Below, piece after piece: positions 13,701 to 16,322 of a stretch of 40,746 nucleotides of DNA. A program made the position numbers and the translations under genes. Each line of letters begins with the position of its first letter. Within the stretch, counting starts at the first letter, position 1. The stretch lies in the NCBI GenBank assembly GCA_039029195.1, contig JBCCGR010000043.1:1-40746 (forward strand), given 5' to 3'. Source of the stretch: Pseudomonadota bacterium. Lineage in GTDB: Bacteria > Pseudomonadota > Alphaproteobacteria > Rhizobiales > Rhizobiaceae. The notes under the pieces are model-generated. The model did no database searches and was not told the origin of the DNA. It worked only from the letters and a program-made list of their open reading frames with translations.

Positions 13701-14597
13701 TCAAACTCGCTCCACCTGATCCTCGCCTGCCTGCGCCGCATAGATTGATGTATAACCGCCTGACCAGTCTGGCGGGATCTGGCAGGGGCGCGGGTCGTGC
13801 ATCGCCCACTTCACCGGTTCGCCACGAACAATCTCATAGGTATGAGACGACGGGTCCGGGTGCGGGGTGTAGGGCTTGGCATCGGCCGCCGTGTAGCAAT
13901 TGAGCAGCAATGGCCGCGGGCGGGGTGATTTGCTTGATGGTGAAAAATGCAGCGTGCGGGCATTGTGTACCGTAATTGAGCCCGCCGGACCCGTGAGATA
14001 ATCGACATGCTTCATGTCAACGCCCGCCGCATCCTCGTCGCTCAGCATGCCGGTCCAGTTGCCATCCTTGTCATATTGGTCAAACAACGGCTCATTGTGT
14101 GAACCGGGGCGCACGGCGAGCGGGCCATTGTTCATGTCCGTGTCGGCAAGATAGCAGCCAATCGTCAGTACATTATAGTTCGTGTGCGGAAAGAACTGGA
14201 TGTCCTGGTGCCACTTCACCGTGTCGCTTTCATCGAACCATTTGTAGTTCAGCTTGGAATGATGAAACACCACATTGGGGCCGACCAGATCAGCTGCCAC
14301 GTCGGCCATCAGGCCTTTGGCGAAATTCCAGTAGGTTTCGTGCTGATCGTCGGGCTTTTTCAAGCGCCGCAAAACGGGCATTTCGGCGCTGTGACCCGGG
14401 CCAATGTCAAATACGGCACCGGATTGGGTTTCCTTCCGGCTCGCATCCATGAACGTGTTGGTGACATTGACCAGCTCTTTGAGCAGATCCTGCGGAACGA
14501 GGCCTTCGACACCCACATAGCCATGATCAAAGTAATGTTCGCGCTGGGCCTGTGTCAGCACCCGCGCCGGATGGGCCAGGATTTCTTCGGGGCTCAT
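13701..14597 (-). CDS. PhyH-family Fe(II)/2-oxoglutarate-dependent dioxygenase (operon gene 3)
   Basis: WHQDIQFF (HxD) plus distal His (VHNARTLH) in a ~300-aa phytanoyl-CoA-dioxygenase-like fold. Its start overlaps the panB paralog stop by 4 nt. Confidence 0.7.
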   Translation of the reverse strand: MSPEEILAHPARVLTQAQREHYFDHGYVGVEGLVPQDLLKELVNVTNTFMDASRKETQSGAVFDIGPGHSAEMPVLRRLKKPDDQHETYWNFAKGLMADVAADLVGPNVVFHHSKLNYKWFDESDTVKWHQDIQFFPHTNYNVLTIGCYLADTDMNNGPLAVRPGSHNEPLFDQYDKDGNWTGMLSDEDAAGVDMKHVDYLTGPAGSITVHNARTLHFSPSSKSPRPRPLLLNCYTAADAKPYTPHPDPSSHTYEIVRGEPVKWAMHDPRPCQIPPDWSGGYTSIYAAQAGEDQVERV

Positions 14598-15457
14598 TTT
14601 TGGTCCTCCTCAGCAAGCATTTGTCGAAACACTTCAGCCTCTTTATCTGCCATAAAATAGGCATGGTCTTTGCCGGGGAAGGTGCCGGCACGCACGTCGT
14701 CGGCATAGGCTTTAAATGCATCGACGGCGACGTCCGCCACGTTGCCATAGCGCTTCGCAAATTTTGGCTTGAATGTATCAAATGCGCCAATCAGATCATA
14801 GCCATTGAGCAATTGACAGTTTCCCGATGCCCCTGCTCCAATCGAAAAAGTGAAAATCGAAACGGCTTCATTCACCGCGCGACCAACTTCGTCGGGCACA
14901 GCCTCGATTTCGAGCCCCACAGCGCCGGCCGCCTCGATCGCTTTTGCATCTTCCACAATGCGCATTGCGTCAGCTGCCGTTCGCCCCTGTGTCTTGAATC
15001 CGCCATAGCGGTGCACATAGTGGGGGAGCAGGCCCACATGACTCATCACCGGAACGCCGGCATCGGCGATGGCTTTGATGATGTCAAAATGCTCCTTCCC
15101 GCCCTGGAGTTTGACCGCGTCCGCGCCGCTTTCCTTCATCATTTTCACTGCGTTGGTGACGGCAAGCTCGTGGGTTGCATATGAGCCATAGGGCATTGAA
15201 ACCAGCGTCAGCGTGTTGGGCGCACCAGCGCGAACAGCCCGCACATGGTGGATCATCTGGTCTATGGTGACGGACAGCGTGTTTTCATCGCCGTAAAGCG
15301 TCATGCCGAGGCTGTCGCCCACGCCAATAATATCAACGCCGGCGCGTTCGGCCCAGGCCGCGCTCAACACCTCACCGACAGCCACCATGACAAGTCGCTC
15401 ACCAGTCGCCTTTTTAGTTCCAAGGTCAGGGATTGTGAGGCGTTTTTTGGCTGGCAT
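14594..15457 (-). CDS. panB: 3-methyl-2-oxobutanoate hydroxymethyltransferase paralog (PanB family)
   Basis: Blocks VGDSLGMT, AVRAGAPN, MPYGSYAT, VPVMSHVGLLP, YGGFKTQGR, IGAGASG, KPKFAKRY are collinear with E. coli PanB. Start at MPAKKRLT (the track ORF extends 29 codons further upstream). Confidence 0.8.
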   Translation of the reverse strand: MPAKKRLTIPDLGTKKATGERLVMVAVGEVLSAAWAERAGVDIIGVGDSLGMTLYGDENTLSVTIDQMIHHVRAVRAGAPNTLTLVSMPYGSYATHELAVTNAVKMMKESGADAVKLQGGKEHFDIIKAIADAGVPVMSHVGLLPHYVHRYGGFKTQGRTAADAMRIVEDAKAIEAAGAVGLEIEAVPDEVGRAVNEAVSIFTFSIGAGASGNCQLLNGYDLIGAFDTFKPKFAKRYGNVADVAVDAFKAYADDVRAGTFPGKDHAYFMADKEAEVFRQMLAEEDQK

Positions 15458-15461
15458 GATA

Positions 15462-16322
15462 TCAGTACCGCTTCCCTGCGCTAGCATCTGCGCCCTCATA
15501 GAGCACCCGGCGTTTGATTTCGGTATCGCGGCGGCAAAGGTCAAAATCCTCCTCCATCAATCGTCCGCGCGGTGGTGGTGCGATGGTGAAATTGCCGTAG
15601 CGATCCTCGCCGCTCACATGGGCCACCAAAGAGCGGTCGCCCGAGCGTTGCTTCATCGATGTCTTGATATAGCGAATGGCGGAGCCGATGCGCCGGTCAT
15701 TGGTGGTGTTGGGCCCCGAGGCATGAAACAGATGTCCATGGTGCATGGAGGCCTGCCCGGGCTGAAGCATCACCGAAACCCCATCCTCCTCGTTTACTTC
15801 TACTGCAATTTCCTGGCCGCGTGACAGCAGATTGTTTTTGTCAAACGTGTCCACATGGGGAACGAGCTGTTTCTTATGGCTGCCGGGCACAAATTTCATG
15901 CAGCCGCTTGCCTTAGTTGCGGGGGAAAGCGCCACCCAGCAGGTGGTTTCTTCCGCATCATCAAGCCCCCAATAGGTGAGGTCCTGATGCCATGAAACGA
16001 TCTTGGGGGAATTGGCTTCCTTGATGAAAAAGGCAGCACTCCACACCATGAGATCAGGCCCCAAAACGGCAGAAGCTGCCTCGATGAGCCGTTCGTTGCG
16101 GATCAGATTGTCGAACGAGGGTAAAACTCGATCAGGATAGGAAAGAAGCAAAGCCGTGCGCTCGGCATCGCCTTTCAGTTCGGCCTCGGCGGCTTCCAGA
16201 TCGTCGCGCAGGGCCTGTGCTTCATCGGCGGAAATCGCTTCGATGGGAAAGACGAACCCATCCCGATCATATTGTGCAGCGACGTCCTGTGCCGCTGGTT
16301 GTGGGCTTTGTGCTGCGGCCAA
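15462..16322 (-). CDS. PhyH-family Fe(II)/2OG-dependent dioxygenase (operon gene 1)
   Basis: SWHQDLTYW (HxD)...HHGHLFH. Same family as 13701-14597 but a divergent paralog. Its stop lies 4 nt from the panB start. Confidence 0.7.
   Translation of the reverse strand: MAAAQSPQPAAQDVAAQYDRDGFVFPIEAISADEAQALRDDLEAAEAELKGDAERTALLLSYPDRVLPSFDNLIRNERLIEAASAVLGPDLMVWSAAFFIKEANSPKIVSWHQDLTYWGLDDAEETTCWVALSPATKASGCMKFVPGSHKKQLVPHVDTFDKNNLLSRGQEIAVEVNEEDGVSVMLQPGQASMHHGHLFHASGPNTTNDRRIGSAIRYIKTSMKQRSGDRSLVAHVSGEDRYGNFTIAPPPRGRLMEEDFDLCRRDTEIKRRVLYEGADASAGKRY

Follow-up and report, generated by a model that had tools for sequence, protein, structure and literature searches.

In the catabolism of alpha-aminoisobutyrate a methyl group is hydroxylated, and a tetrahydrofolate (THF)-dependent alpha-methylserine hydroxymethyltransferase then removes the hydroxymethyl group. 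Glutarate is hydroxylated at its 2-position by CsiD and is then handled by LhgO. PanB, the ketopantoate hydroxymethyltransferase (KPHMT) of pantothenate synthesis, acts on a 2-oxo acid, which it enolises with the help of a metal, and a PanB reaction with other 2-oxo acids that does not depend on THF is also documented (PMC7770189). Here we describe an operon in which a gene for a PanB-like protein stands between two genes for PhyH-family Fe(II)/2-oxoglutarate (2OG) hydroxylases. It lies on contig JBCCGR010000043.1 (assembly GCA_039029195.1) of an alphaproteobacterium placed in Rhizobiaceae; the whole stretch analysed, 40,746 nucleotides and the complete contig of a metagenome-assembled genome, is referred to below as the window. 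The PanB-like protein belongs to a clade with altered active-site residues, and, judged from these residues and from the gene company of its relatives, the operon probably serves the transfer of one-carbon (C1) units in a catabolic pathway and not the synthesis of pantothenate. An earlier, sequence-only reading of this DNA did not recall the arrangement as characterised, and we likewise found no description of the clade or of the gene order in the literature searched, the one lead being a table of methanesulfonate-monooxygenase (msm) genes from Filomicrobium sp. Y (PMC4433239).

The PanB-like protein and its altered residues

By fold and by sequence models the protein is a PanB-family member. 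Pfam Pantoate_transf (PF02548) matches it at 4.7e-88 (295 bits against a cutoff of 28.7), the TIGR00222 panB model gives 256 bits (cutoff 207.6) and PRK00311 gives 285 bits (cutoff 272). It aligns over its full length to five solved PanBs (3VAV, 3EZ4, 1M3U, 1O66 and 1OY0, with E values of 1e-44 to 1e-54) and is ~20 residues longer at the C-terminus than canonical PanBs. The sequence-only reading had called it a bona fide PanB in which all E. coli PanB blocks are conserved. This description had to be given up, since three positions differ (E. coli numbering throughout): Asp84 and Glu114, present in all five solved PanBs, are replaced by Ser and Gln, and a new Glu stands at 179, two residues ahead of the conserved Glu181.

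These changes are clade-wide. In an alignment of 84 clade relatives from genomes and metagenomes, position 84 is Ser in 60 sequences and Ala in 24, while Gln114 and Glu179 are found in 84 of 84. D45, S46, K112, H136, E181 and Q211 are invariant in the same alignment, and S46, K112, H136 and E181, the acid/base and carboxylate residues of PanB, are invariant in the canonical set as well. We take D45, D84 and E114 to be the Mg site of PanB and E181 to be its base, following the structure papers of 2003; of this acidic triad only D45 is kept. A wider comparison, of ~110 diverse representatives at 50% identity, contains ~90 proteins with the canonical pattern D-D-K-E-H-(V/L/I)-E and ~15 with D-(S/A/C)-K-Q-H-E-E, and no mixed states. 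The perfect covariation of positions 84, 114 and 179, which extends over ~100 sequences, suggests that a metal ligand has moved to position 179 and that the gene is not decaying. Other near-universal canonical residues are also replaced in the clade (Q142H, G201S, G210C, L42G, P198F, V214N and D209T). The protein has the KPHMT fold and retains the residues for holding a 2-oxo acid and for acid/base chemistry, but its metal site and pocket are rebuilt. We would count it as a PanB-family member but would not file it as a functional PanB, because the canonical metal-site residues and the pantothenate gene context (see below) are both missing.

Distribution of the clade and pantothenate context

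Relatives and association counts, here and below, refer to the matches listed by pattern scans and are not totals. Genes in related loci were called with our own open reading frame (ORF) and tblastn scripts, with spot checks by Pfam and NCBIfam. Among the matches listed, relatives 63-81% identical to the window protein occur in Hyphomicrobiaceae (including Filomicrobium), SAR116, Thalassospira and Minwuia, in Rhodobacterales (HIMB11, Ruegeria, Pseudophaeobacter, Lutimaribacter, and Paludibacillus as placed in Paracoccaceae) and, outside Alphaproteobacteria, in Granulosicoccaceae (Gammaproteobacteria) and marine Acidimicrobiia. Clade members are 76% identical to one another at the median and 56% at the minimum, those of Acidimicrobiia and Granulosicoccaceae included, as against 30-44% between the clade and canonical PanBs and a median of 43% among the canonical proteins themselves. 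In a representative library of 1.84 billion proteins, scores step down from 388 bits for the marine type to ~288 bits for a type with Cys at position 84, and to 230 bits or less for canonical PanBs. This pattern of identities and scores across distant groups indicates an accessory gene that has spread horizontally.

The Cys84 type includes a plasmid copy in Methylobacterium nodulans (pMNOD02; locus L084, positions 8944-9855), a 'panB' 48.6% identical to the window protein and carrying C84, Q114 and E179, in an uninformative context. With it the variant PanB family has a second branch, a terrestrial one, which is likewise annotated as pantothenate biosynthesis. It is also the best plasmid relative, none being found above 60% identity.

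No panC accompanies the clade: it is absent by tblastn from ~150 clade loci, and no clade locus, the window included, has it beside the PanB-like gene. For comparison, panC adjoins panB in three (L068, L074 and L076) of the ten canonical loci, and it also follows canonical panB in L165 and L166, an arrangement seen in roseobacter plasmids. The canonical Rhodobacterales panB is a different gene, ~42% identical, which overlaps panC behind nadABC; the vitamin-B5 gene of R. pomeroyi is SPO0102 (PMC10041152). In the window, tblastn detected no panC, and a Pfam survey of the other large ORFs returned core genes only, with no match to the panC, panD or panE families, in agreement with the earlier remark that neither panC nor panD is nearby. 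The suggestion that the gene is a paralog recruited away from pantothenate synthesis has fared well too: it looks like a specialised, horizontally spread paralogue, which forms a distinct clade, has an altered active site, never stands by panC and keeps oxygenase and catabolic neighbours.

The operon and its two hydroxylases

Three consecutive minus-strand ORFs fill positions 16322 to 13701. The features of the operon, from the ORF map and from direct reading of the sequence, are as follows.

16323-16478, no strand assigned: intergenic region 5' of the operon, 156 bp, presumed promoter region (ORF map)
15462-16322, minus strand: PhyH1, 286 aa, PhyH-family Fe(II)/2OG hydroxylase (Pfam PhyH 1.6e-28)
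15458-15461, minus strand: spacer TATC, 4 nt, between PhyH1 and PanB-like (sequence reading)
14594-15457, minus strand: PanB-like, 287 aa, KPHMT fold, with S84/Q114/E179 in place of D/E/V (E. coli numbering)
14594-14597, minus strand: ATGA start/stop overlap of PanB-like and PhyH2 (sequence reading)
13701-14597, minus strand: PhyH2, 298 aa, PhyH-family Fe(II)/2OG hydroxylase (Pfam PhyH 1e-18)

ORFs, Pfam and NCBIfam agree on the three tightly packed genes, PhyH, PanB and PhyH, that had been read at these positions. Both junctions measure 4 nt, as had been claimed, but only the second is an overlap. At the first, the PhyH1 stop TGA (15464-15462) is separated by the spacer (15461-15458) from the PanB-like ATG at 15457. 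The PhyH2 start is preceded by AGGAGGA at 14610-14604. The most likely start of PhyH1 is the TTG at 16322, with GGGAGGA ahead of it at 16333-16327, and its orthologues are likewise 286 aa long. No match to the sigma-70 consensus was found in 16323-16478, an absence that is uninformative for this organism, and a promoter and terminator scan gave nothing above chance. The operon is bordered by a convergent ubiH-like gene and by a divergent 756-aa ORF of no known family.

Both hydroxylases belong to the PhyH family (PF05721) and carry the HxD...H triad with a 2OG-binding Arg ~11 residues past the distal His. The motif, noted earlier in both proteins, is H112, D114, H200 and R211 in PhyH1, invariant among its orthologues, and H130, D132, H217 and R228 in PhyH2, invariant in 95 orthologues. 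Because HxD holds its Asp, the sequence argues for hydroxylases rather than halogenases. PhyH1 has many orthologues at 73-84% identity in marine Hyphomicrobiales-type metagenome-assembled genomes (MAGs), and PhyH2 has orthologues at 66-85% in many marine genomes. Both proteins fall far under every NCBIfam equivalog cutoff, so that no characterised equivalog was matched. A structure prediction for PhyH1 from 16 close orthologues reached a pLDDT (predicted local distance difference test) of 33.

Gene neighbourhoods of the related loci

The comparison of neighbourhoods covers 47 clade loci whose flanks reach 3 kb or more in each direction. In 36 of them the PanB-like gene has a Rieske, PhyH1-like or PhyH2 oxygenase within 4 kb, in these combinations.

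Rieske VanA-like only: 15 loci
Rieske and PhyH2: 8 loci
PhyH2 only: 6 loci
PhyH1-like and PhyH2: 3 loci
PhyH1-like only: 3 loci
Rieske, PhyH1-like and PhyH2: 1 locus

PhyH2 is therefore co-located with the PanB-like gene in 18 loci, and two others (L059 and L014) have a TauD-family dioxygenase. A divergent MarR regulator is present in 26 of the 47, and IclR or LysR regulators also occur. DmdA-family GcvT proteins occur in 18 loci and fall into two subtypes, at 448-485 and 350-357 bits against the cutoff of 410 of the model for dimethylsulfoniopropionate (DMSP) demethylase; a CitE/RipC-like coenzyme A (CoA)-ester lyase occurs in 11, and tripartite tricarboxylate transporters (TTT) stand beside some. 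The fullest islands also hold a tripartite ATP-independent periplasmic (TRAP) DctPQM transporter, an aldehyde dehydrogenase, an acyl-CoA dehydrogenase, an MmgE/PrpD protein and an IclR-controlled set of SBP56, ferredoxin, CoA_binding_2, rhodanese and metallo-beta-lactamase (MBL) genes. This last set, with a 2Fe-2S ferredoxin and an MBL-fold protein, lies at 14961-17183 in L081, at 14811-17188 in L083 and in the downstream parts of L036 and L047. It is these larger islands in other genomes, and not the window, that show the sulfur theme (DmdA-like, SBP56, rhodanese, MBL).

All three genes of the window are found again, rearranged, in its nearest relatives, the two genomes of L167 and L169, as PhyH2 (81-84%), GST, PhyH1 (85-87%) and PanB-like (79%). 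A PanB, PhyH1-like, PhyH2 order with a more distant PhyH1-like gene is found in L020, L057, L061, L090 and L124. The co-conservation on which the sequence-only reading had staked its case holds in part: PhyH2 keeps company with the PanB-like gene in the 18 loci and the trio recurs in two, but PhyH1 and PhyH2 orthologues are often found without it. In L168 (8001-13883), a PhyH1 orthologue (75-79%) is convergent to a branched-chain 2-oxoacid dehydrogenase (bkd) operon with an AsnC-type regulator, 2.4 Mb from the PanB-like gene of L002 on the same 6.45-Mb contig.

The closest relatives of the PanB-like protein itself (79-81%, among the matches listed) lie in a different setting, with GntR, a 500-aa FAD oxidoreductase, a methyltransferase and, in some, a GFA-family (glutathione-dependent formaldehyde-activating) gene before PanB. 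The GFA gene is directly 5' of the PanB-like gene in L001 (7455-7904) and L004 (3054-3503). A further setting is an apparent operon in a SAR116 MAG (L052, 3181-8852) comprising PhyH2, a GlcD-like FAD 2-hydroxyacid oxidase, a DUF1537/D-threonate-kinase-like gene, a PdxA-like gene and the PanB-like gene, the predicted products of which link the module to four-carbon hydroxy-acid chemistry. A D-erythronate-dehydrogenase-like gene also adjoins PhyH2.

Three candidate identities among the neighbours were rejected. The Rieske partner, with its VanA_C domain and a Cys-His spacer of 17 residues in place of 26, is not MsmA; the SBP56 protein is not MtoX (156 bits against a cutoff of 650); and the PrpB-like gene is no substitute for the PanB-like gene, both being present in L075.

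A possible role in one-carbon removal

The partners of the clade are carboxylate uptake systems, catabolic regulators, oxygenases, folate enzymes and lyases, a company that argues for a catabolic operon. Our favoured reading, put forward tentatively, is that of a small catabolic module in which the two hydroxylases and the PanB-like protein would run a folate-linked C1 step, a PanB cleavage in reverse. According to this model, PhyH1 and PhyH2 would oxidise a small carboxylic acid to yield a hydroxymethyl-bearing or 4-hydroxy 2-oxo acid, either directly or via oxidation of a 2-hydroxy acid. The PanB-like protein would then run the PanB reaction backwards, so that the CH2OH group passes to THF, giving 5,10-methylene-THF, and a 2-oxo acid of shorter chain is left. 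In this way 4-hydroxy-2-oxobutanoate would give pyruvate, or a hydroxylated 2-oxobutanoate or 2-oxoisovalerate might be cleaved; overall, a carbon from a methyl or hydroxymethyl group would be removed oxidatively and enter the folate pool. In the larger islands the same step would proceed beside DmdA-like folate enzymes, the CitE-like CoA-ester lyase, TRAP uptake and the SBP56/rhodanese sulfur module. From this gene company, one may speculate that the natural substrate is a methylated, possibly sulfur-containing, marine carboxylate.

Reverse cleavage is favoured because of the SAR116 operon, where GlcD-like, DUF1537 and PdxA-like genes join PhyH2 and the PanB-like gene, and because of the erythronate-dehydrogenase-like gene beside PhyH2. 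The retention of 2-oxo-acid residues, a more polar pocket and the tight coupling of the three genes in the window speak for it as well, and the folate link is drawn from the DmdA-family proteins in 18 of the 47 loci. The sequence-only reading had proposed C1 transfer onto a 2-oxo acid with two hydroxylation or desaturation steps, in the synthesis or catabolism of a branched hydroxy acid or a modified amino acid. C1 transfer alongside hydroxylases, and catabolism, survive from that proposal; the addition of a hydroxymethyl group to build a branched hydroxy acid is disfavoured by the MarR/IclR/LysR, TRAP/TTT, DmdA-like, GFA and lyase contexts.

A bolder extension, which we regard as rather doubtful, would make the whole S/A84-Q114-E179 clade an unrecognised folate-dependent 'dehydroxymethylase' that, with interchangeable PhyH, Rieske and TauD partners, would constitute a widespread marine methyl-stripping route running PanB in reverse. 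Its substrates would be small metabolites in abundant supply, which may be organosulfur acids of the DMSP or methylmercaptopropionate (MMPA) type or C4 hydroxy acids, and their methyl carbon would reach the THF pool through hydroxymethyl transfer at a C-C (or C-S) bond.

Several points weigh against reverse cleavage. Eleven of the 47 PanB-like loci, those of the closest relatives (79-81%) among them, have no oxygenase nearby, the PanB-like gene is present in only six of 20 well-flanked PhyH2 loci, and PhyH1 orthologues frequently stand alone. Missing from the window are the MarR, transporter, DmdA-like, CitE-like and SBP56 genes of the other islands; no match to the last three was found anywhere in it, which sets it outside the dmdA-family clusters. 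With its score above the cutoff of the NCBI equivalog model for panB (TIGR00222), the protein may still have canonical activity, and the loss of two metal-site residues could have weakened the enolate chemistry and not retuned it. Finally, the presence of four unrelated oxygenase families beside one PanB-like clade would fit generic formaldehyde handling at least as well.

This last point leads to the alternative that survives best, although we hold it to be unlikely. The PhyH, Rieske and TauD enzymes would act as N-, O- or S-demethylases that release formaldehyde, and the PanB-like protein, alone or with DmdA/GcvT-like proteins, would capture it, either onto a 2-oxo acid in a THF-independent aldol reaction or into methylene-THF. 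The outcome would be detoxification and C1 conservation with the carbon skeleton uncut. Reverse cleavage and such capture share their chemistry, in that folate and a 2-oxo-acid carbanion exchange a CH2O unit. Being VanA-like, the Rieske partner comes from a family rich in demethylases, the closest relatives have the GFA gene directly ahead of the PanB-like gene, and DmdA/GcvT-family genes in 18 of the 47 loci would suit capture equally. The islands also hold SBP56 proteins related to methanethiol oxidase, an enzyme that produces formaldehyde, but these lie far below the MtoX model (156 against 650 bits). Formaldehyde and THF, moreover, condense spontaneously, no PanB is known in such a role, and the SAR116 operon contains no obvious demethylase, yet does contain enzymes that make 2-oxo and phospho-hydroxy acids. 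In Filomicrobium sp. Y, an msm fragment pairs GcvT with a 302-aa '3-methyl-2-oxobutanoate hydroxymethyltransferase' as C1-transfer genes (PMC4433239), a pairing that would favour formaldehyde capture if the latter gene is of the S/A84-Q114-E179 type.

Less probable still is that the gene is simply the working panB of the organism, with PhyH neighbours that are accidental or share only its expression. The scores above the TIGR00222 and PRK00311 cutoffs and the retention of D45, S46, K112, H136 and E181 are what one would expect of such a gene, and some carriers come from marine lineages that are streamlined (SAR116, HIMB11), in which one would hardly expect a second copy. However, D84 and E114, invariant in the five solved PanBs and in the ~90 diverse representatives, are both replaced, and the clade maintains 60-80% identity across phyla as compared with ~40% among canonical PanBs. 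The gene never adjoins panC, is accompanied by MarR-type regulators and has oxygenases beside it in 36 of 47 loci, while in Rhodobacterales the canonical panB is a separate, ~42% identical gene joined to panC, and the B5 gene of R. pomeroyi is SPO0102 (PMC10041152).

We consider it improbable that the operon is biosynthetic, with a hydroxymethyl group added to a 2-oxo acid and the hydroxylases tailoring a branched hydroxy acid or modified amino acid for a natural product or osmolyte. PanB is known to work physiologically in the forward direction (PMC7770189), three tailoring-type enzymes are tightly coupled, and PhyH-family enzymes are common in secondary metabolism, as the PDB match lists reflect. 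Against this, none of ~170 loci has nonribosomal peptide or polyketide synthase, ligase, exporter or other biosynthetic genes, and the partners (uptake systems, MarR/IclR/LysR regulators, CoA-transferases, lyases and dehydrogenases) are those typical of catabolism. Just as improbable is a folate-independent enzyme, a PanB fold turned decarboxylase, aldolase, lyase or tautomerase as in the phosphoenolpyruvate (PEP)-mutase/isocitrate-lyase superfamily, for although metal ligands are lost and relocated, the conserved E114, Q142, G201 and G210 are replaced and PrpB-like and CitE-like lyases share the islands, the recurrent DmdA/GcvT partners and the GFA neighbour indicate C1 chemistry.

Other genes of the window

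Apart from the operon, the contig consists of core chromosome, with ftsK, lolA, two amt genes, glnK, tesB, secA and argJ. TctA, TctC and a MarR-family regulator are encoded at 22838-26357 on the minus strand, at a distance of 8-12 kb; L003 likewise has a tripartite tricarboxylate uptake system beside its PanB-like gene. The divergent 756-aa ORF (16479-18749, plus strand) has no match in Pfam or NCBIfam, and its C-terminal third contains three ~50-aa repeats with the motif 'YFGP(L/M)E(N/D)xYA(D/N)...C'. Since the GC content drops to ~0.50 across 17-19 kb, this region beside the operon may be foreign DNA. A DUF218 gene (18803-19432, minus strand) precedes a gene for a 1058-aa fusion of an APH-type kinase, Peptidase_M23 and a class-III aminotransferase (19538-22714, plus strand), which matches PRK06148 at 1493 bits, a model that NCBIfam names 'hypothetical protein'. 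On the other side of the operon, two overlapping small ORFs between tesB and the ubiH-like gene (11545-11823 and 11820-12257, plus strand) resemble an antitoxin and a PIN-type toxin. Further away, an RTX calcium-binding repeat protein with 11 repeats (5466-6737, minus strand) is encoded in the kilobase where the window has its lowest GC content (0.467), and is adjoined by the two ammonium transporter genes and glnK (7006-10250).

Significance and comparison with known systems

Automatic annotation names every clade member panB, and this mis-annotation inflates the predicted pantothenate prototrophy of marine MAGs from SAR116, roseobacters, Hyphomicrobiaceae, Granulosicoccaceae and marine Acidimicrobiia. 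If folate-linked C1 removal with oxygenases is the true function, the module would represent an unrecognised step in marine one-carbon cycling, possibly also in organosulfur cycling given the neighbours, and a KPHMT active site re-tooled by a shift of the metal ligand from positions 84/114 to 179. With only three genes to the module and carriers that can be cultivated (Ruegeria sp. 2205SS24-7, Lutimaribacter marinistellae KCTC 42911, Pseudophaeobacter sp. EL27 and HIMB11), the question can be put to a direct test. Complete carriers are CP179201.1, OZ244249.1, OZ244899.1, the 6.45-Mb contig of ERZ25071330 and the 5.47-Mb contig of ERZ21939226.

With regard to the known DMSP demethylation and methanethiol genes (DmdA, MtoX), DmdA-family proteins (350-485 bits, cutoff 410) and SBP56 proteins share many islands with PanB-like genes, and none is in the window; dmdB, dmdC and dmdD were not identified. 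The SBP56 genes of the islands lack the SCO1/MauG context published for MtoX (PMC5739008).

With respect to the hydroxylases, the best solved relative of PhyH1 is PDB 6ZYK (E 1.8e-40), an 'uncharacterized protein/monooxygenase' that is itself uncharacterised, and the nearest solved relatives of PhyH2 are the EctD ectoine hydroxylases 3EMR and 4MHR (E 2.5e-11). Phytanoyl-CoA 2-hydroxylase (2A1X), EctD and 6ZYK all have the HxD...H...R motif and the PhyH domain in common with both window proteins. These nevertheless score only 43.9 and 38.4 bits against the EctD cutoff of 336.5 (TIGR02408), and 26-28 bits against the cutoff of 500 of the methylphosphonate hydroxylase model.

The alpha-aminoisobutyrate route has the same logic as the one we propose, in that an oxygenase adds the hydroxyl group and a folate enzyme removes the CH2OH, and serves here as a lead. 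CsiD and LhgO offer the logic of passing from a 2-hydroxy acid to a 2-oxo acid, comparable to the PhyH2 and GlcD-like pair of the SAR116 operon. Both routes differ from the present one in using other enzyme families (diiron and pyridoxal phosphate enzymes in the former, the CsiD family in the latter). The canonical PanBs of E. coli (1M3U), M. tuberculosis (1OY0), Burkholderia (3VAV and 3EZ4) and Neisseria (1O66) share fold and family with the window protein, which differs from them in being unlinked to panC and in belonging to a clade that stands beside oxygenases and under MarR-type control.

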